Source of the DNA: Escherichia phage NicoleGrasset_Bas72
Sequence record: PQ850621.1
DNA length: 43,746 nt
Strand: one strand, 5' to 3'
Part shown: positions 1,823 to 38,808 of the stretch, piece after piece
Position numbering within the stretch: the first letter of the stretch is position 1
How the letters are laid out: each line of letters starts with the position of its first letter
Made by a program: the position numbers and the translations under genes
Notes under the pieces: model-generated
What the model saw: only the letters and a program-made list of their open reading frames with translations
Told to the model about the DNA's origin: nothing
Databases searched by the model: none

Positions 1823-3304
1823 ATGTTAACTATGAACGGTCAGAATCAGGGTGTTAAGACAAAACACCGGGAATGGCTGCATCACTTCGATAAATGGCAG
1901 AAGGTACGCCACGCTCTTGAAGGCGACCTTATCCGCTATCTGCGCAACGTCGGGAAGAACGAGCCTGACCAGACCTACGCAGCACAGCGACAGGAAGAAT
2001 ACGAGAACGGCGCTATCTGCTACAATTTCACCAAACGCACGCTGGCGGGGATGACGGGGTCAGTGATGCGCAAAGACCCTGAGCAGATTATCCCGCCTGA
2101 ACTTGAGTACCTGTTGCACAACGCTGACGGTTCAGGTGTCGGGCTGTGGCAGCACGCGCAGGATACGCTGATGGAGATTAACTCGATAGGCCGTGGCGGG
2201 TTGCTGGTGGACGCCCCGGAAACAGCCGCAGCAACGGCGGCAGAGCAGAACGCGGGATTATTAAACCCGGTAATCGCATTCTATACCGCGGAGAACATTA
2301 TCAACTGGAGACTCACCCGCATCGGTTCAGTGAACCGCGTGACGATGGTTGTATTGCGTGAGGCATGGGAATACTCGGAACCAGGCGCTGAGTTTGAAAC
2401 AAAATTCGGCGAGCAATACCGCGTCCTTGACCTGATTGACGGTCGCTACCGCCAGCGCATCTACCGCTTCGATGCCGAAGGTGGCGCACAGGATGAAGTA
2501 ATCGAAATCTTCCCGGAACTCGGCGAACAGTTGCGCGGTAAAATCCCGTTCACGTTCATTGGCGCAAGCAACAACGACGCCACTATAGACGATGCGCCTT
2601 TACTGCCGTTATCTGAGCTAAATATAGGACACTTCAGAAATTCGGCCGATGTGGAAGAGGCCAGCTTTATAGTAGGTCAACCGACACTGTTCATTGCCCC
2701 CGGCGAGAACATGAGCATGGAGCAGTGGAAAGAAGCCAACCCACACGGCATACGCATGGGGTCGCGTTCAGGCCACAACATCGGCTCCGGCGGAAATGCG
2801 TTTCTGGTTCAGGCGGCGGAAACTAACCTCGCCAAACAGAACATGCTGGATAAAGAGAATCAGGCCATCCAGATTGGCGCGCAGCTTATCACCCCGACGC
2901 AGCAAATCACCGCGGAATCGGCCCGCCTGCAACGCGGCGCCGACACGTCAGTCATGGCAACAATAGCACGTAATGTAAGCATGGCGTATACCGATGCGTT
3001 GCGCTGGGTTGCGGGTATGCTTGGGCTTAGTGAAGATACTGAGATTGAGTTCAAGCTGAATATGGAATTCTTCCTGCAACCTATGACAGCTCAGGACCGC
3101 GCTCAGTGGATGGCGGATATTAACGCTGGCCTGCTACCCGCCACCGCTTACTATGCTGCGTTGCGCAAGGCAGGTGTGACTGACTGGACAGATGAGGACA
3201 TTCAGAACGCTATTGAAGACGCACCTCTGCCGTTGGGTTCTGTTGCTCAGGTAGCGGGAGAGATTCCGCAGTCGGCGCAGCAACAGGACACCACTCAGCA
3301 GTAA
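1823..3304 (+). CDS. portal protein
   Basis: 493 aa ORF immediately after terminase, AAGAGG SD; acidic Q-rich C-terminus; canonical gene order. Confidence 0.7.
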   Translation: MLTMNGQNQGVKTKHREWLHHFDKWQKVRHALEGDLIRYLRNVGKNEPDQTYAAQRQEEYENGAICYNFTKRTLAGMTGSVMRKDPEQIIPPELEYLLHNADGSGVGLWQHAQDTLMEINSIGRGGLLVDAPETAAATAAEQNAGLLNPVIAFYTAENIINWRLTRIGSVNRVTMVVLREAWEYSEPGAEFETKFGEQYRVLDLIDGRYRQRIYRFDAEGGAQDEVIEIFPELGEQLRGKIPFTFIGASNNDATIDDAPLLPLSELNIGHFRNSADVEEASFIVGQPTLFIAPGENMSMEQWKEANPHGIRMGSRSGHNIGSGGNAFLVQAAETNLAKQNMLDKENQAIQIGAQLITPTQQITAESARLQRGADTSVMATIARNVSMAYTDALRWVAGMLGLSEDTEIEFKLNMEFFLQPMTAQDRAQWMADINAGLLPATAYYAALRKAGVTDWTDEDIQNAIEDAPLPLGSVAQVAGEIPQSAQQQDTTQQ

Positions 3305-3312
3305 GTTCACCT

Positions 3313-3336
3313 ATAGCCCCGAAAGGGGCTTTCTTA
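3313..3336 (+). terminator. hairpin plus short T-tract between portal and head-morphogenesis genes (attenuator-like)
   Basis: AGCCCC gaaa GGGGCT then TTCTT. Confidence 0.35.
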
Positions 3337-3340
3337 TAGT

Positions 3341-4417
3341 ATGCTATTAACTTTAGCGCCACAGGGTTTATCTATGAGCTTACTTACATCCCTAATCAGC
3401 CATCAGATATGGCTGCAACGCACCGCATCCGGTGAAGTGAAAGACCTCACGCCGTTCATTCAGGAGATAAGGGATGAAATCAAACGGCAGGTGCTGTTAT
3501 TCGGTGACGACGGTCGCAGCACTGCGCGACTGAATAAACTGTTACGCGACCTGGAAGAAGCACTAACCGGTATTACGGGTGACTGGCAAACAAAGCTAAC
3601 AGACGACCTTAAGGAACTGGCGGCGTACGAGGCTGAGTGGAACGTAAAGACACTGACCGCCAACGTAGACGCGGAATTTGTTACGCCTACCGCTGAGCAG
3701 GTATGGGCCGCTGCCGAGTTTCAACCATTATCATTGAGCGACAAGCCCGTTGATTTCACCAAGCTGATGTCTGGATGGGGCGAAACGGAAGTAGCACGTC
3801 TTGTAACTGGAGTTAAGATGGGCTTTGTGCAAGGTCAAACCACACGGCAGATTGTTAAGAATGTTGTTGGCGCTGGTGGACTAGCCGACATCTCAGAACG
3901 TAACGCGACTACGGTAATCCGCACCGCGCTGTCCCACGTATCCAACGAGGCCCGTAACGAGACGTACCGCCAGAACGACGACATCATCGAGAAGTACGAG
4001 TGGGTGTCAACGCTTGACAGCCGCACCAGTACGATTTGCAGGGTCAGAGACGGGATGACGTGGGAAATTGGTAAGGGGCCGATGCCCCCAGCCCATCCGA
4101 ACTGCCGGTCGTGCACGGCTCCGGTAATCAGTTCCGAGTTCGACTTCCTCGATAAAGGCGCAAAACGCGCGGCTAAAGGCGCGGAAGGTGGCACTCAGGT
4201 AAGCGCAGACACCACTTACTACGAGTTCCTTAAACAACAACCGGCGTGGTTTCAGGACCAGGCGCTCGGCCCGGTGCGAGGTAAGATTTTCCGTAACAGC
4301 GGTATATCGCCGGAAGAGTTTCGCGTAATATCTGTAGATGGTTTCGGGAATCCGCTCACGCTTAAGCAGATGGCGGAACTCGATAAACGTGTTGCTGATT
4401 ATCTGAAAGGGGAATAA
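3341..4417 (+). CDS. head morphogenesis protein (Mu F / SPP1 gp7-like)
   Basis: 358 aa ORF after portal; canonical position; family assignment from memory of this module, not from a search. Confidence 0.6.
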   Translation: MLLTLAPQGLSMSLLTSLISHQIWLQRTASGEVKDLTPFIQEIRDEIKRQVLLFGDDGRSTARLNKLLRDLEEALTGITGDWQTKLTDDLKELAAYEAEWNVKTLTANVDAEFVTPTAEQVWAAAEFQPLSLSDKPVDFTKLMSGWGETEVARLVTGVKMGFVQGQTTRQIVKNVVGAGGLADISERNATTVIRTALSHVSNEARNETYRQNDDIIEKYEWVSTLDSRTSTICRVRDGMTWEIGKGPMPPAHPNCRSCTAPVISSEFDFLDKGAKRAAKGAEGGTQVSADTTYYEFLKQQPAWFQDQALGPVRGKIFRNSGISPEEFRVISVDGFGNPLTLKQMAELDKRVADYLKGE

Positions 4418-4878
4418 TGATGGGCTTTTTCAAAGTAACTGACGTACCGTCTCGTCGCGTAGTCCAGTACGCCCGCGTGTCTGGCTCTGGCGAGAACGTG
4501 GTATTTATTGAGGACGAAAGTGTACTCGGTACACCGGTAGATGATATGCCGTTTGCAGATAAAACCGGTATTGCGTTGCCCGCCGCCGGTATGCTTTATG
4601 AAATTCCGTATCTGGCGGACGCTGGCGACGTGTATTTCTCTGCGCAACCGCAGGACGCTGAACTGGCGGGCGGCAGCGCAACCATCACTGTCGAGGTTAA
4701 GGCAGGCAAAGCGCCGTATTCTCTGACCTGGTACAAAGACGGTAAGGAAGTGGTGAATGCGCCTGAGGAGGCTCTGTCTCTGACGGTTAATGCGGTCGGC
4801 GAATACTTCGTTAAAGTTACTGATGCCGATGGAGTAGAGGCGGTAAGCAAAGCGGCGAAGGTTACTAAGCCAGAATGA
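4417..4878 (+). CDS. Ig-like domain protein (head-associated)
   Basis: ATGA overlap with upstream gene; C-terminal segment PYSLTWYKDGKEV...GEYFVKVTDADG resembles Ig-like (Big/I-set) fold and is paralogous to 8190-8540. Confidence 0.55.
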   Translation: MMGFFKVTDVPSRRVVQYARVSGSGENVVFIEDESVLGTPVDDMPFADKTGIALPAAGMLYEIPYLADAGDVYFSAQPQDAELAGGSATITVEVKAGKAPYSLTWYKDGKEVVNAPEEALSLTVNAVGEYFVKVTDADGVEAVSKAAKVTKPE

Positions 4879-4880
4879 TA

Positions 4881-4909
4881 AAAGGCCCCATTATGGGGCC
4901 TTAGTTTTC
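4881..4909. terminator. rho-independent terminator, likely bidirectional
   Basis: AGGCCCCA tta TGGGGCCT then TAGTTTT; A-run on the other side; between convergent genes. Confidence 0.6.
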
Positions 4910-5111
4910 AACGGAATCTTGTGTTTAAATCCTGCTCATGGACAACCCTCAGAACAGTGTCATAATCCCCGTATCTTCCAGGTTCAAATATATCTAATGC
5001 CTTGTAAGCAGACATTGCGTCAGGGAAAACCTGCAGAACCTTTTTAACCCGGCACAAGTCACCGTCGAACTCTTCATCGAACTCTTGAACTACTTCGCAA
5101 ATTGCATACAT
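4908..5111 (-). CDS. hypothetical protein, 67 aa, acidic
   Basis: ATG with AGGAGGTG SD; sits between bidirectional terminator 4881-4909 and minus-strand promoter 5139-5167. Confidence 0.5.
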   Translation of the reverse strand: MYAICEVVQEFDEEFDGDLCRVKKVLQVFPDAMSAYKALDIFEPGRYGDYDTVLRVVHEQDLNTRFR

Positions 5112-5138
5112 TTTTCACCTCCTGTTTAAGTTAACTGA

Positions 5139-5167
5139 ATAGTACCCTATTATATTGGGGTGTGCAA
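5139..5167 (-). promoter_or_regulatory. promoter, TTGCAC-N17-TACTAT family
   Basis: On minus strand: TTGCAC, 17-nt spacer accccaatataataggg, TACTAT; drives 4908-5111. Confidence 0.55.
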
Positions 5168-5242
5168 ACTATTTATTTACGTATTCCATTTATTCCACTA
5201 AATTGTAAATATTGGAATAAACTATTCGAATAGTTGACTTTT

Positions 5243-5271
5243 CACTGAAAATGTGCTAAGCTCCACCTGAG
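5243..5271 (+). promoter_or_regulatory. promoter candidate TTGACT-N17-TAAGCT overlapped by a 16-bp palindrome
   Basis: -35 TTGACT at 5243-5248, -10 TAAGCT at 5266-5271; palindrome AACTATTCGAATAGTT at 5229-5244 overlaps the -35. Confidence 0.35.
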
Positions 5272-5439
5272 CTTGTGAAGTATGAACAAGCGACCGCGGC
5301 GCGGGCAGGTAACGGAGCGGGACGTAAGTCCTGAGTGTAGTTACGCTGACGCGTTCGGAAGGGCCATACTCTATTGCTTGTGTAAAAAGTAACAGGTTTA
5401 CTTAGATTACGCCGTTTCTATGTTTAAATGATAAGGACT

Positions 5440-5470
5440 AGCGCCCTGCTTTAAGGCAGGGCTTTACTTA
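5440..5470 (+). terminator. terminator-like hairpin upstream of the spanin genes
   Basis: GCCCTGC tttaag GCAGGGC then TTTACTTA. Confidence 0.4.
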
Positions 5471-5486
5471 TCGAGAAAGGAGAAAC

Positions 5487-5873
5487 ATGAATCTTAAAGC
5501 AACTGTCGTAGCGGGAGCATGTTTCATCATCCTGGCTTACACACACGGCATCTACCAGTACCGCATCGGCTGGAACGAAGGCCGGGCGAATCTCGTTTCT
5601 CAGCAACAGCAGAAAGCACAGGCCGAGATGACTAAGAAAACACAACGGCAGCAGCAGGACGAATCAAAGGCCGCAGCCGCTGACAACGAAGGCAAGACGA
5701 AATCAGAGGTGATCACCCGTGAAGTCGTTAAGTACATTAAAACGCCTGGTCGCAGCGGGTGCACTTTTGACCCTGAGCGCGTGCAGCTCAAGTCCCGCGC
5801 CGTCGCAAACGCTAATTCCATTACCGGATACGACGATGATGCAGCCTCCGTGCAAACTGGCAGCGCCAAGTAG
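5487..5873 (+). CDS. putative i-spanin (Rz-like)
   Basis: AAGGAG SD; N-terminal TM segment ATVVAGACFIILAYTHGIY followed by Q/K/E-rich coiled-coil-like periplasmic region; contains an embedded lipoprotein ORF in another frame. Confidence 0.6.
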   Translation: MNLKATVVAGACFIILAYTHGIYQYRIGWNEGRANLVSQQQQKAQAEMTKKTQRQQQDESKAAAADNEGKTKSEVITREVVKYIKTPGRSGCTFDPERVQLKSRAVANANSITGYDDDAASVQTGSAK

Positions 5874-5982
5874 CGATGCTGACGAGGATTTGGCTATAGA
5901 CGTTCAGAACGCCGAATGCGTGCGGCAACTGCGTCTGAAAGTATTCCAGTTGCAGGATTATGTGAGGAATATTCTGGAATAG
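5719..5982 (+). CDS. putative o-spanin (Rz1-like outer-membrane lipoprotein), GTG start
   Basis: Signal peptide with lipobox LSAC (MKSLSTLKRLVAAGALLTLSAC), Pro-rich mature region; starts inside 5487-5873 in a different frame and extends past it. Confidence 0.55.
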   Translation: MKSLSTLKRLVAAGALLTLSACSSSPAPSQTLIPLPDTTMMQPPCKLAAPSSDADEDLAIDVQNAECVRQLRLKVFQLQDYVRNILE

Positions 5983-12328: not shown

Positions 12329-12356
12329 ACTAAGGCCCCTTTCGGGGCCTTTTTCT
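12329..12356. terminator. bidirectional rho-independent terminator
   Basis: AGGCCCC tttc GGGGCCT then TTTTT; convergent genes on both sides. Confidence 0.75.
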
Positions 12357-12586
12357 CACTCATCAATATTACTTCGATACTCCCGTAACTTCTCCAGACT
12401 TTCAATTGCTTCTGCTAAGTCGGTTCCGGTGTCCTTATGCCCGCGAAGACCCATGCACAATAACTTCTTCAATGCGTGCTGTAGTGCGGGGTCACGGATG
12501 TCGAAGGCACGGAGAACATCGTAAACGTCTACGGTCATAGTGCTGCCGTGAGTGTTTGTCATTGTTCGGTTGTATTTTGAAGTCAT
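12356..12586 (-). CDS. hypothetical protein (76 aa)
   Basis: Last gene of minus-strand cassette; start overlaps stop of 12583-13713. Confidence 0.45.
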   Translation of the reverse strand: MTSKYNRTMTNTHGSTMTVDVYDVLRAFDIRDPALQHALKKLLCMGLRGHKDTGTDLAEAIESLEKLREYRSNIDE

Positions 12587-13713
12587 CCCAGCATCTCCGG
12601 TGAAATAGTTAAACGTGCGACCTCGCCATATTCGGCGCTATAAGTAATTACATTTGCACTACGGCCTGACATCCACCCGCCGCGGGAGGCATAGGCGTCT
12701 TTAGCCGCTAAGGTGCGGTGTTGCTCAACAATCATGTTACGGCTTTCTACAATCTTCTGGTGGTGCAGGTGGCCTACGTGGGCGTAGCTATAGACACTCT
12801 CACCGAACGCTTTGCGGAATTTGGCAATCATAACCGGTTCGATAGCATCGAATCGCGCCTTATGCCCGTGGTGAAAGAACAACGTCGTTTTTCCGTGTTG
12901 CACCATCTTGTAAACATCCGGCGACGTATCGACAATCACTCGGCTGTCGTTCGAATATAAAACTGTGAACATTTCAGCCAGCCATACAGAGCCTACAGGG
13001 TCATGGTTCCCCTGTACGATAAGCAAGCGAACATTTTTATGTTTAACCAGTGCCATATCTACAACACGGCGTACCATACGAATCATGTAGCGGACGAGTT
13101 TCTGGTAGCGAGTGTCTGCGTCCAACACGTGACGCGACTCAGGTGTAACGGCATCCAGACTATCGAAGTGCGCGAAATCACCCAGCAGGTTAATAACTCC
13201 TGTTCCTGCATCCGGTGCTTTCTGAAACGCCGCGTCGAACCAACGAGAGAACAGGTCTTCCGCAATCTTTATATCCCAGTCGTCGCCGCTCTCGTCGGCC
13301 CAGGCAAGCATACCGAGATGGAAATCAGATACCGTGTAAAGATTGAGTAGCTTGTCGTCGCGTTTGGCTCGAGTCGCTTTAGCCGGCGCAACTGGCGTAA
13401 TCTCTGACTTCATGCCTTCAATCACGGCTTTCATCAACTCGACCTGACGTTCAGCGTCGGTGTCTGTCTTAACCCATTGCAACTTAGTATTGCCGAACTC
13501 GTCTACCAGAGACGACGTCCCTTTAATCTTGTAGCCGTCTGGGACAAGGTGGCTAACGTCACGCCCGTGGCCTACACCTTTCTTAGCCAGCTTCGCTTTA
13601 CGGATACGAATAACTCGGTCTGAGATGCCGTATTTACGGGCGATGTCTACATTCTTCATCCCGGCGTTCAATTCTTCCTGTAACTGTTCGTCGGTTATTT
13701 TCTTCTGGGCCAT
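12583..13713 (-). CDS. HTH domain fused to calcineurin-like metallophosphoesterase
   Basis: Metallophosphoesterase motifs visible in order: SDFHLG (D-x-H), GDFAHFD (GD), GNHD, HHGH, GHLHH; N-terminal HTH-like segment VDIARKYGISDRVIRIRKAKL. Confidence 0.7.
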   Translation of the reverse strand: MAQKKITDEQLQEELNAGMKNVDIARKYGISDRVIRIRKAKLAKKGVGHGRDVSHLVPDGYKIKGTSSLVDEFGNTKLQWVKTDTDAERQVELMKAVIEGMKSEITPVAPAKATRAKRDDKLLNLYTVSDFHLGMLAWADESGDDWDIKIAEDLFSRWFDAAFQKAPDAGTGVINLLGDFAHFDSLDAVTPESRHVLDADTRYQKLVRYMIRMVRRVVDMALVKHKNVRLLIVQGNHDPVGSVWLAEMFTVLYSNDSRVIVDTSPDVYKMVQHGKTTLFFHHGHKARFDAIEPVMIAKFRKAFGESVYSYAHVGHLHHQKIVESRNMIVEQHRTLAAKDAYASRGGWMSGRSANVITYSAEYGEVARLTISPEMLG

Positions 13714-13778
13714 GCTTACTTCCTCGTGTTTAGGATTTGTCCTATTTAACCACAGTGGATTCCTTTAAATAAAGGCAA

Positions 13779-14105
13779 CTATTTACTTTCTGCGCCTATC
13801 GCCCACCCTGTCATTACCATTTGCAGACGGGTGGCTGTCAGTAGGCTATAGAAAGCATCTCCGTTTTTCTCTACCGAACGTATCACTGTGTAGGTTACGG
13901 CCTGCGGGGGTAGGCCCGATTTACCAACCTCCACGGCGGCCTCACACTCGCGAACTGTAGAGTCCTTGAACGCCTTTACAATAGTAGGGTCGGCTTTATC
14001 AAGCACACCAGAAGTCATAAGAACAGATTCACTAAATACCTGTTCGCACGGGGCTCCAAAAGTAGCAAAAGACATAAACCCCAGAGCTAATACTAATTTA
14101 CGCAT
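13779..14105 (-). CDS. small secreted protein (signal peptide)
   Basis: N-terminus MRKLVLALGFMSFATFGA is a signal-peptide-like n/h/c region; first gene downstream of promoter 14134-14162. Confidence 0.55.
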   Translation of the reverse strand: MRKLVLALGFMSFATFGAPCEQVFSESVLMTSGVLDKADPTIVKAFKDSTVRECEAAVEVGKSGLPPQAVTYTVIRSVEKNGDAFYSLLTATRLQMVMTGWAIGAESK

Positions 14106-24137: not shown

Positions 24138-24166
24138 ACTAAGGCCCCGTTTGGGGCCTTTTCTCT
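24138..24166. terminator. bidirectional rho-independent terminator at structural/replication module junction
   Basis: AGGCCCC gttt GGGGCCT then TTTTCT; near-identical to terminator at 12329. Confidence 0.75.
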
Positions 24167-30519: not shown

Positions 30520-30548
30520 TAGTAAAAAGGCCCAATGAAGGGCCTTAG
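30520..30548 (-). terminator. terminator (minus strand) after DUF2815-like gene
   Basis: On minus strand: AAGGCCC ttcattg GGGCCTT then TTTTTAC. Confidence 0.5.
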
Positions 30549-33961: not shown

Positions 33962-33990
33962 CTTTTCTAAAATAATTAATATGGTACTAT
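33962..33990 (+). promoter_or_regulatory. weak promoter candidate for HTH regulator gene
   Basis: TACTAT -10 at 33985-33990 with AT-rich upstream region; -35 poor (CTTTTC). Confidence 0.3.
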
Positions 33991-34021: not shown

Positions 34022-34237
34022 ATGCGACCATCTGAACTAGGCATCCGTGTAGAACAACGCCGCAAAGAACTCGGCATCTCCCAGCGCCGTTTGGCGGCCC
34101 TGACCGGCGTTTCCCAGGGCGCGATTAACCAACTGGCACTTGGAGTAACTCAGGACGTCCGCCCGGCAACGCTGTTCAAACTGGCGGAAGTTCTGGAAGT
34201 AGACGCCAAGTGGCTGGCGTTAGGTGAAGGGGCTTAA
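34022..34237 (+). CDS. XRE-family HTH transcriptional regulator (Cro/CI-like)
   Basis: 71 aa; classic HTH LGISQRRLAALTGVSQGAINQL; AAGGAG SD; own terminator 34227-34252. Confidence 0.7.
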   Translation: MRPSELGIRVEQRRKELGISQRRLAALTGVSQGAINQLALGVTQDVRPATLFKLAEVLEVDAKWLALGEGA

Positions 34238-37250: not shown

Positions 37251-37280
37251 TTGAAAGTTCTTGACACATGTTTGTATAAT
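37251..37280 (+). promoter_or_regulatory. sigma70-like promoter candidate TTGAAA-N18-TATAAT
   Basis: In divergent control region; would transcribe through palindrome 37307-37347 toward hairpin 37482-37510. Confidence 0.35.
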
Positions 37281-37306
37281 GGTTTTGGGACTTGTATATA
37301 TATTAC

Positions 37307-37347
37307 GGAGTTGACGAACCCTCCCCGAGGGATTCGTCAACCCCTCC
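37307..37347. promoter_or_regulatory. long imperfect palindrome (operator or RNA stem candidate)
   Basis: GTTGACGAACCCTC ... GAGGGATTCGTCAAC, arms about 14 bp with a short central spacer and one bulge. Confidence 0.4.
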
Positions 37348-37481
37348 CAGACAGCTGAGATGCTTGCCTTGTGGTTTAAGGATAAGTGTATCTAAATCTC
37401 ATTTAAAGAAGTAACCCGCTGAAATATCTACTGTTTCTTAATGTGCCGTAGATTCGCAACCGTAAAAATGTAACGATTATT

Positions 37482-37510
37482 GGGCAGGCTTAGGGCCTGC
37501 CCTTTAGTTA
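37482..37510 (+). terminator. terminator-like hairpin in divergent control region
   Basis: GGGCAGGC ttagg GCCTGCCC then TTTAGTT. Confidence 0.4.
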
Positions 37511-37574: not shown

Positions 37575-37603
37575 TTGCACACCCCAACATAATAGGATAC
37601 TAT
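37575..37603 (+). promoter_or_regulatory. promoter, TTGCAC-N17-TACTAT family
   Basis: TTGCAC, spacer accccaacataatagga, TACTAT; about 35 nt upstream of gene at 37638. Confidence 0.55.
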
Positions 37604-37637
37604 TCACTTATCGAAACGAGACAGAGGAGTGAGGGTT

Positions 37638-38748: not shown

Positions 38749-38777
38749 TTGCACACTAATATAGAATAGGCTACTAT
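38749..38777 (+). promoter_or_regulatory. promoter, TTGCAC-N17-TACTAT family
   Basis: TTGCAC, spacer actaatatagaataggc, TACTAT; upstream of 38809. Confidence 0.5.
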
Positions 38778-38808
38778 TCATTTACACAAACGAGAGGAGA
38801 GACAGAAT

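Follow-up and report, generated by a model that had tools for sequence, protein, structure and literature searches.

What is a solitary small gene doing on the opposite strand between the head and spanin genes of Escherichia phage NicoleGrasset_Bas72? Is the open reading frame (ORF) really a gene, how would it be expressed, and what could its product do for the phage? The window, i.e. the whole stretch of DNA that was analysed (43.7 kb), is a complete Kagunavirus (Guernseyvirinae) genome, belonging to a small virulent siphovirus of E. coli. Between 4400 and 6000 it is 96.9% identical to the BASEL phage LotteLoewe (Bas71), and 181 phage records matched this region.

Gene order and coding potential

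The ORF encodes 67 amino acids and is located on the minus strand at 4908-5111 (204 nt), with its ATG at 5111 and its stop codon ending at 4908. The coordinates, strand and length agreed with those in an earlier note on this sequence, as did the acidic nature of the product: the predicted protein of 7.9 kDa has a pI of 4.5 (14 D + E versus 8 K + R). No hydrophobic segment was found in it. In Bas71 the ORF corresponds to Bas71_0006, annotated as "hypothetical protein", and relatives carry the same label.

On the left, the portal gene (1823-3304) and the Mu F-like head morphogenesis gene (3341-4417) are followed by a plus-strand gene for a Hoc-like (Ig-domain) head decoration protein (4417-4878; phrog_3945, E 1e-85, with weak Ig-like Pfam matches). 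On the right, a non-coding stretch of 375 nt separates the ORF from the start of Rz. The Rz/Rz1-like spanin pair (5487-5982, plus strand) was recognised by matches to phrog_2536 (2e-54) and phrog_5672 (6.5e-30) and from the Bas71 annotation, and the scaffold and major capsid genes lie beyond it. The gene had been described as lying between head-morphogenesis and spanin genes. This is correct on the spanin side, but on the left the Hoc-like gene comes first and the Mu F-like head morphogenesis gene lies beyond it.

Reading the sequence upstream of the ORF revealed a Shine-Dalgarno (SD) sequence AGGAGG at 5123-5118 (minus strand), 6 nt ahead of the ATG, within a module that is kept in relatives carrying another gene at this position. 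A search of 5.8 billion proteins yielded 18 clusters of homologues of 67-68 aa with 62-96% identity. An exhaustive HMM search (1.84 billion representatives) gave 23 matches. About 19 of these, which are 50%-identity representatives, were genuine members of 63-75 aa, and four were discarded as spurious, being repeat proteins that aligned to the helix region only. A broader profile search resulted in 41 clusters, none of which was named. The homologue clusters (~40) came exclusively from phage records or contigs of phage size; searches of 5,426 complete E. coli genomes and 72,556 plasmids gave none. Using tblastn, homologues were found in 32 phage records: 19 of E. coli Kagunavirus, 4 of Salmonella phages (62-67% identity), 2 of the Cornellvirus Shemara, 6 of Klebsiella phages and 1 other, a further E. 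coli phage of 61 kb. The Salmonella records comprise VSt10 (twice), a Jerseyvirus, and two records without annotation.

Length and core are conserved across homologues with 33-96% identity, and D16, V22, A35 and the C-terminal Phe-Arg (F66-R67) are invariant. Among ten homologues synonymous sites were saturated (pS 0.73-1.0), with a pN of 0.25-0.5. Judged by this conservation, the ORF is a real protein-coding gene under purifying selection. With only 67 codons and no database label other than "hypothetical", it might be taken for a chance reading frame in an intergenic spacer. We regard this as extremely improbable in view of the 41 homologue clusters of conserved length, the strong SD, the purifying selection and the structure model with a pLDDT of 95 (see below).

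Promoter module and terminator

Upstream of the gene, at 5167-5136 on the minus strand, lies a promoter-like module of 32 nt, TTGCAC-N17-TACTATTCA. It reads TTGCAC (-35, 5167-5162), 17 nt, TACTAT (-10, 5144-5139) and TCA. The pattern TTGCNC-N17-TACTATTCA is present in 4 copies in the window, versus 0.30 expected, and 4 copies were obtained in 0 of 100 shuffled sequences; the TACTAT family to which the promoter had been assigned is therefore real. One paralogous copy (14162-14131, minus strand) belongs to the cassette at 12356-14105. Another (37575-37606, plus strand) heads a rightward array of small ORFs that adjoins a divergent control region (layout taken from the Bas71 annotation), and a further copy is present at 38749-38780 (plus strand). 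A generic sigma-70 scan did not list the module at 5167-5136, because its -35 matches the consensus in 3 of 6 positions only. The earlier claim of an own promoter of this family thus holds for the family, but not as a generic sigma-70 call. The module is promoter-like by virtue of its repetition, position and conservation.

A fifth TACTATTCA is located at 33985. When one mismatch was allowed, TACTATTCA occurred 10 times in the window versus 7.6 expected, which is no enrichment. For this reason, and because the arrangements of the repeats are unlike, a shared operator (ACTATTC together with a palindrome at 5220-5235) for the XRE-like protein encoded at 34022-34237 was left aside as an idea.

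At the other end of the gene, a bidirectional intrinsic terminator at 4882-4902 is predicted to be common to the Hoc-like gene (plus strand) and the 67-aa gene (minus strand). Its 9-pair hairpin has a folding energy of -16.3 kcal/mol on either strand (z -4.1 and -3.3) and on the minus strand is followed by the U-run UUUUAUCAUU, as expected from the terminator that had been proposed for the gene. It belongs to a family, AAGGCCCC-loop-GGGGCCTT, of which the window contains four copies (4882-4902, 12332-12351, 24141-24160 and 30527-30546), each at a boundary where the strand or the transcription unit switches. The likeness to the cassette at 12356-14105 that had been pointed out was borne out by both elements, since the two cassettes have the promoter module (14162-14131) and the terminator family (12332-12351) in common.

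The gene had also been said to interrupt the plus-strand structural operon. It does lie on the opposite strand, but an uninterrupted operon is not what surrounds it: the plus-strand genes are already divided by the terminator at 4882-4902 and by a conserved promoter-RNA-terminator unit at 5236-5462, so that the 67-aa gene sits at the boundary of transcription units.

From this arrangement, host sigma-70 RNA polymerase would be expected to transcribe the gene leftwards as a monocistronic mRNA of ~255 nt, running from ~5132 to ~4875. Its timing would be that of the rightward small-ORF array, presumably early, and independent of the structural genes. The basis for calling it early is a single one, the promoter sequence shared with that array.

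A slot with variable cargo

We determined the content of the Hoc|Rz gap in 42 loci that allowed both anchors to be located, namely the window itself, 36 IMG/VR contigs and 5 GenBank phages. Its length varied from 339 to 1131 nt and is 608 nt in the window. In 9 of the 42 loci the slot was empty, with a gap of 339-343 nt. Both the gene and the promoter module are absent from such slots, since in the empty loci that were aligned to the window (L010, L015, L032 and L033) the Hoc terminator runs straight into sequence equivalent to position 5178 onward. Relative to the empty slots, the whole inserted cassette (promoter, SD and coding sequence, minus strand) covers 4903-5177.

The other 33 loci were filled with ~15 unrelated cargo families, every one of them on the minus strand, and most cargo ORFs begin ~375 nt from the Rz start. 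Presence or absence in relatives had been proposed as a check on the gene, and the outcome, with empty slots in 9 of 42 loci and unrelated genes in most others, is that of an optional gene. In relatives with another cargo, homology to the window ends with the final base of the stop codon (4908) and returns at 5108-5127, which comprises the start codon and the SD. Going by these junctions, it is the coding sequence alone that is swapped between relatives with different cargo.

The gap between the portal and Mu F-like genes is a second hot spot. In the window it is empty (3305-3340, 36 nt), versus 240-1428 nt in 13 sampled relatives, in 10 of which the promoter module is located 11 nt from the Mu F start. 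Taking the two sites together, the module was found at the same position in 32 of the 33 filled Hoc|Rz slots and 10 of the 13 filled portal|Mu F slots, versus none of the 9 empty ones. The terminator family, too, is represented at the second slot. At least four cargo families occur in both slots: a 173-aa clamp-like protein, an N6_N4 methyltransferase, a 57-60-aa protein and the 67-aa family itself, which fills the portal|Mu F slot of Salmonella phage VSt10.

Clustering of all minus-strand ORFs of at least 50 aa from both slots gave 30 groups, ~20-25 of which are plausible cargo genes. Most of the cargos have no recognisable function. Those that could be recognised were N6_N4 and D12 DNA methyltransferases, a KilA-N protein, a lipoprotein, small membrane proteins and a Vut_1 transporter adjoining a 244-aa unknown; the cargo profile is one of accessory and host-interaction genes.

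The base composition of the cassette differs from that of its surroundings. Its G + C content is 43.1%, below the 50.9% of the genome and the 53.5% of the Hoc gene, and the GC3 of the 67-aa gene (42.6%) lies below that of the surroundings (53.9-68.9%). Identity to the window in three relatives (L012, L013 and L046) amounts to 96.6-100% for the terminator-CDS-promoter block and 97.5-100% for CDS plus promoter, but only to 86-88% for the adjoining Hoc gene and ~93% for Rz. Backbones with Hoc proteins ~97% identical to that of the window carry different cargos or none. Because occupancy is optional, the position of the module is shared, the G + C content deviates and the cassette is more alike than its flanks, the cassette is, on this comparative evidence, a moron-type accessory gene in a recombination slot. 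The accessory character that had been suspected is thereby upheld, the slot being empty or refilled in relatives; the 67-aa protein is nevertheless subject to purifying selection. The cargo could be exchanged through homologous recombination that acts between the promoter and terminator modules, both of which are conserved.

Such exchange would also be expected of a neutral or selfish passenger that is moved by recombination at the promoter and terminator modules and brings the phage no benefit. The 67-aa gene is missing from most relatives without visible compensation, cargo turnover between near-identical backbones is fast, and no function could be assigned from the library, PADLOC and Foldseek searches, all of which would fit a passenger. 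However, purifying selection is seen across at least five phage lineages (pN 0.25-0.5, saturated pS, invariant residues), the strong SD and the dedicated promoter-like module are retained, and the family persists in very different genomic contexts. We therefore consider a passenger without benefit unlikely.

The moron concept is reportedly due to Juhala and Hendrix and was drawn from lambdoid phages of the HK97/HK022 type, in which extra genes are said to have their own promoter and terminator. The 67-aa cassette resembles these morons in that an extra gene stands exactly between genes that are adjacent in relatives (9 of 42 slots being empty), in its promoter-like site and predicted terminator, in its deviant base composition and in being dispensable. 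Unlike the lambdoid morons, it is found in a virulent siphovirus, where expression from a prophage is not the point, and it is antisense to the structural genes. Its promoter and terminator moreover come from repeated families that mark other slots as well, and many alternative cargos use one slot.

Variable cargo at fixed positions is also known from the hot spots of P2-like and P4-like elements, which are temperate and carry anti-phage defence systems there. As in those elements, the slots lie at fixed positions between conserved genes and their cargo differs among close relatives. The Kagunavirus carrier, in contrast, is lytic, and the cargo consists mostly of small unknown proteins, DNA methyltransferases and the like.

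A repeated regulatory motif at the junctions is the feature of the PeSL (promoter-early stem-loop) cassettes of T4-like phages, in which a repeated sigma-70-like promoter and a stem-loop terminator bracket non-essential ORFs, and where insertions, deletions and replacements have their junctions at the motifs, suggesting modular shuffling driven by recombination (PMC2839356; PMC4122927). Similarly, the Kagunavirus motifs are repeated (4 promoter and 4 terminator copies) and the replacement junctions fall at the motif (4908 and 5108-5127). PeSLs, however, are composite units of terminator plus promoter between tandem genes on the same strand, in large hyperplastic regions of myoviruses. In the Kagunavirus the modules are separate, with the promoter (5136-5167) and the terminator (4882-4902) at opposite ends of a single antisense gene, and there are only 4-5 copies per 44-kb genome. 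In the strict sense the cassette does not qualify as a PeSL, its promoter and terminator being separate and at opposite gene ends. With this pattern, recombination at regulatory motifs, described for T4-like myoviruses, would extend to small siphoviruses.

The slot offers a natural insertion site with precise boundaries, equipped with a standard promoter-like module, a ribosome-binding site and a terminator, in a small phage group that lends itself to engineering, and could serve as a landing pad for payloads. Kagunavirus has been called attractive for synthetic biology by the authors of the BASEL collection (PMC11990801). Since variable genes are concentrated in the two slots, location can guide the search for counter-defence or host-takeover functions, the search space being ~20-25 small families without an assigned function.

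Candidate roles of the protein and the adjoining RNA unit

AlphaFold2 models of the 67-aa protein reached a pLDDT of 86.8 with 19 sequences and 95.0 with 36 sequences. The predicted fold consists of a long beta-hairpin (residues 2-12 and 17-29), a helix (32-42), a short helix and a third strand. The protein had no match in Pfam (E<=1), NCBIfam (E<=0.01) or PADLOC (E<=10). In PHROGs only phrog_27256 was touched, with E 4e-4, over residues 2-67 of the protein. As the match is weak and this family is unannotated, it adds nothing on function. A profile search of the PDB returned chance-level matches only, and Foldseek against 350,542 PDB chains gave nothing significant (best E 0.76 with the pLDDT-86.8 model and 0.68 with the pLDDT-95.0 model; TM <=0.45 among the matches listed for the two models). 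Foldseek hits among viral models were uncharacterised phage proteins only. In one metagenomic protein a DUF905 domain is fused to the 67-aa domain; in the literature searched, DUF905 is uncharacterised. The BASEL paper and a time-course RNA-seq paper on Kagunavirus are silent on the 67-aa gene, and nothing relevant was found in the literature on Guernseyvirinae and morons or on CM001.

The genomic contexts of the homologues are of two kinds. In three other lineages the homologue forms an opposite-strand islet inside a structural module, between portal and Mu F (Geezett), between Mu F and capsid genes (L057) or between tail and head genes (L055). In others it is part of an array of small ORFs resembling an early region, as in Kpn2-P2 (where it adjoins the primase gene), L053 (near KilR and Vut_1 genes) and Shemara. 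No partner gene was found to be conserved across these contexts. In Geezett and Kpn2-P2 the homologue is followed by a gene of ~170 aa; the two were examined as partner candidates and rejected, being related neither to each other nor to the 173-aa slot cargo.

A helper of morphogenesis or lysis that acts with its neighbours, for example as a chaperone of the Hoc-like protein or as a spanin modulator, would fit the position between head and spanin genes, and several homologues likewise have portal, Mu F or capsid genes as neighbours within structural modules. However, the gene is on the opposite strand and has a promoter module of the small-ORF-array type, the same slot is taken by methyltransferases, transporters and other unrelated genes, other homologues are found in arrays of small-ORF or replication genes, and the distribution is patchy. 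Such a helper seems very improbable to us.

The protein would be cytoplasmic, a long beta-hairpin packed on a helix with the invariant Phe-Arg at its C-terminus, and it appears too small and featureless for an enzyme. It would more readily bind and block a host protein, or a defence or competitor factor, which would give the phage a conditional advantage on some hosts. By analogy, the protein is most likely a small inhibitor or binder of a host or defence factor that is useful under certain conditions. This role is argued from size, charge, context and analogy, since neither sequence nor fold led to a relative of assigned function. T7 Gp2, Ocr and the anti-CRISPRs are comparable as a functional analogy, being negatively charged cytoplasmic proteins of 60-120 aa, encoded by stand-alone genes in accessory regions and of patchy distribution; in sequence or fold, no similarity between them and the 67-aa protein was detected (PDB profile search; Foldseek best E 0.68, TM <=0.45 among the matches listed). 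Its context would suit an anti-defence or host-takeover protein, with a slot that also hosts DNA methyltransferases and other cargo and a promoter module of the type found at the small-ORF array.

Two specific candidates were set aside. The beta-beta-alpha-beta order of the model prompted a comparison with the RNA-polymerase inhibitor Gp2 of T7; as no tool supported a Gp2-like fold, this reading remains an analogy. BASEL Kagunaviruses are reportedly very sensitive to restriction-modification systems, and their sensitivity to Old varies (PMC11990801). Six BASEL Kagunaviruses carry the 67-aa gene, which speaks against a broad anti-restriction factor.

Taking cassette and product together, the best explanation, and one that we hold to be probable, is a moron-type cassette, presumably expressed early, whose product inhibits a host, defence or competitor factor. 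A more far-reaching version is conceivable, but we put it forward only tentatively: the proteins would form a novel phage-only family that inhibits a host defence or another host process, with a fold absent from the PDB, and the two slots would be plug-in expression sites, the 20-25 cargos of which make up an arsenal for counter-defence and host interaction. The 67-aa gene itself is an ordinary hypothetical accessory gene from an uncharacterised family that consists of phage sequences only and has no fold relative. Its main value lies in the architecture of the slot and in the lead that it offers for the discovery of functions.

The adjoining DNA may exceed the gene in basic interest. The right flank of the cassette is a conserved non-coding unit of 309 nt (5178-5486, plus strand), at least 94% identical in 179 of 180 records from E. 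coli and Salmonella phages. Its mean identity of 95.5% exceeds that of the Hoc, Mu F, Rz and capsid genes (88-92%), and no other segment of the region is as well conserved. At 5220-5235 a perfect palindrome of 16 nt abuts a promoter-like site on the plus strand (TTGACT-17-TAAGCT, 5236-5264), and the unit ends in a terminator at 5443-5462 (plus strand), the stem of which shows compensatory changes. Within the unit 5236-5462 a structured RNA of ~200 nt is predicted on the plus strand. Its 5' 110 nt form a long hairpin domain in which five base pairs keep pairing despite changes on both sides. The covariation score was 0.126, versus 0.067 for shuffled alignments (0 of 500 reached 0.126), and the signal collapsed in slid controls. 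Relatives annotate a 36-codon ORF in this unit; two relatives have pairs of indels that break its frame. A search of Rfam gave no match at gathering or E-value thresholds. On the covariation and conservation data, the neighbouring unit contains a highly conserved structured RNA that had escaped annotation and may act either in cis, as a leader of the late genes, or in trans.

Its proximity raises the question whether the 67-aa protein, or leftward transcription of its gene, could regulate the phage's own programme by modulating the 5236-5462 unit and hence expression of the spanin and capsid genes. Two promoter-like sites stand back-to-back ~70 nt apart in an AT-rich region with the perfect palindrome, and the non-coding unit is better conserved than any other segment of the region. 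The RNA unit, however, stays the same whether the slot is empty (9 of 42 loci) or filled with unrelated cargo (most of the others), the protein is acidic and has no DNA-binding motif, and homologues elsewhere are found in unrelated contexts without the neighbouring RNA. A regulatory role of this kind thus appears improbable, and we favour the inhibitor encoded by a moron-type cassette.

Some relatives contain a second, diverged copy of this RNA unit at the early control region. The corresponding position in the window is occupied by a different promoter-terminator unit (37251-37502), the predicted folding of which is likewise unusually good (z -3.8).

A conserved non-coding unit beside the cargo slot

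The slot between the Hoc and spanin genes, which holds the 67-aa gene, adjoins a non-coding unit on the plus strand (5178-5486), for which a promoter-like sequence (TTGACT-17-TAAGCT, 5236-5264) and a terminator (5443-5462) predict an RNA of approximately 5271-5470. In 179 of 180 Guernseyvirinae records the identity of the unit reaches 94% or more; the genes that flank it are less conserved. Within the 5' domain of the RNA covariation was found, with double changes at 5 pairs and a score of 0.126 versus 0.067 for shuffled data. Rfam contained no family for this RNA; in relatives, the unit has been annotated as a 36-aa ORF (5282-5392). The RNA may be a leader of the late operon, similar to put or to the 6S RNA of lambda, or an sRNA.

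Immediately adjoining the -35 of the RNA promoter is a perfect 16-nt palindrome, AACTATTCGAATAGTT (5220-5235), with its centre at about -43 relative to the start inferred for the RNA. It resembles an operator or the binding site of an activator, and its half-site is similar to ACTATTC, a sequence of the TACTATTCA promoter family, the repeated module that precedes most of the cargo genes. The spanin genes (5487-5982) are located among the head genes, with the genes for holin and endolysin approximately 35 kb away (~40.6-41.7 kb), showing that the lysis cassette is split.

RNA units at the early control region

Some Kagunavirus-like genomes contain a second, diverged copy of the 5178-5486 unit at the early control region (locus L059, 1500-1760; also the contigs of L060/L097 and L077), placed with the leftward gene of an HTH regulator on one side and, on the other, the TACTATTCA promoter that heads the rightward array, indicating that the RNA unit is itself mobile or duplicated. 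At the equivalent position, the window contains a different plus-strand unit without an ORF (37251-37502), which has a near-consensus promoter (TTGAAA-18-TATAAT) and ends in a strong terminator (37482-37502). Its predicted RNA of ~226 nt, with a folding z of -3.8, is a candidate second non-coding RNA.

Other cargos and shared modules

The most frequent alternative cargo is a 173-aa protein (L003, 1507-2028; L002, 482-1003), named either 'DNA polymerase III sliding clamp' or 'RusA-like Holliday junction resolvase' depending on the GenBank record. Both names are doubtful, since Pfam returned only a sub-threshold match to the beta-clamp (E 0.008). The gap that separates the portal gene from the Mu F-like gene (3305-3340) is a second hot spot for cargo. 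This slot is empty in the window (36 nt) and measures 240-1428 nt in the relatives in which it is filled (L002, L014, L018, L019, L023, L029-L032, L034, L042, L043 and L045), usually with a TACTATTCA-type promoter module. The cargos include a methyltransferase, a KilA-N protein, several small ORFs, and a Vut_1 transporter with a 244-aa unknown protein. Locus L002 (OR594180.1, phage vB_EcoM_SHAK7693) is filed as Autographiviridae/Kayfunavirus and is collinear with Kagunavirus across the head-gene region studied; its taxonomy label is probably wrong.

Strand switches and boundaries of transcription units are marked by near-identical bidirectional terminators (4882-4902, 12332-12351, 24141-24160 and 30527-30546) of the pattern AAGGCCCC-loop-GGGGCCTT(AGTTTT). 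The likeness drawn in the earlier note between the 67-aa gene and the minus-strand cassette at 12356-14105 holds, both having the same promoter and terminator modules. The metallophosphoesterase-like core of this cassette is widely conserved in Guernseyvirinae; the small genes accompanying it vary, and in relatives encode a superinfection-immunity protein or an HNH endonuclease.

A candidate regulator

A solitary plus-strand gene for a 71-aa XRE/DicA-like HTH protein (34022-34237), seemingly without annotation in the close relative Bas71, is present inside the minus-strand replication module. Upstream of it the motif (A/T)ACTATTCA occurs twice (33941 and 33985). As an idea only, this protein is a candidate for regulating promoters of the TACTATTCA family.
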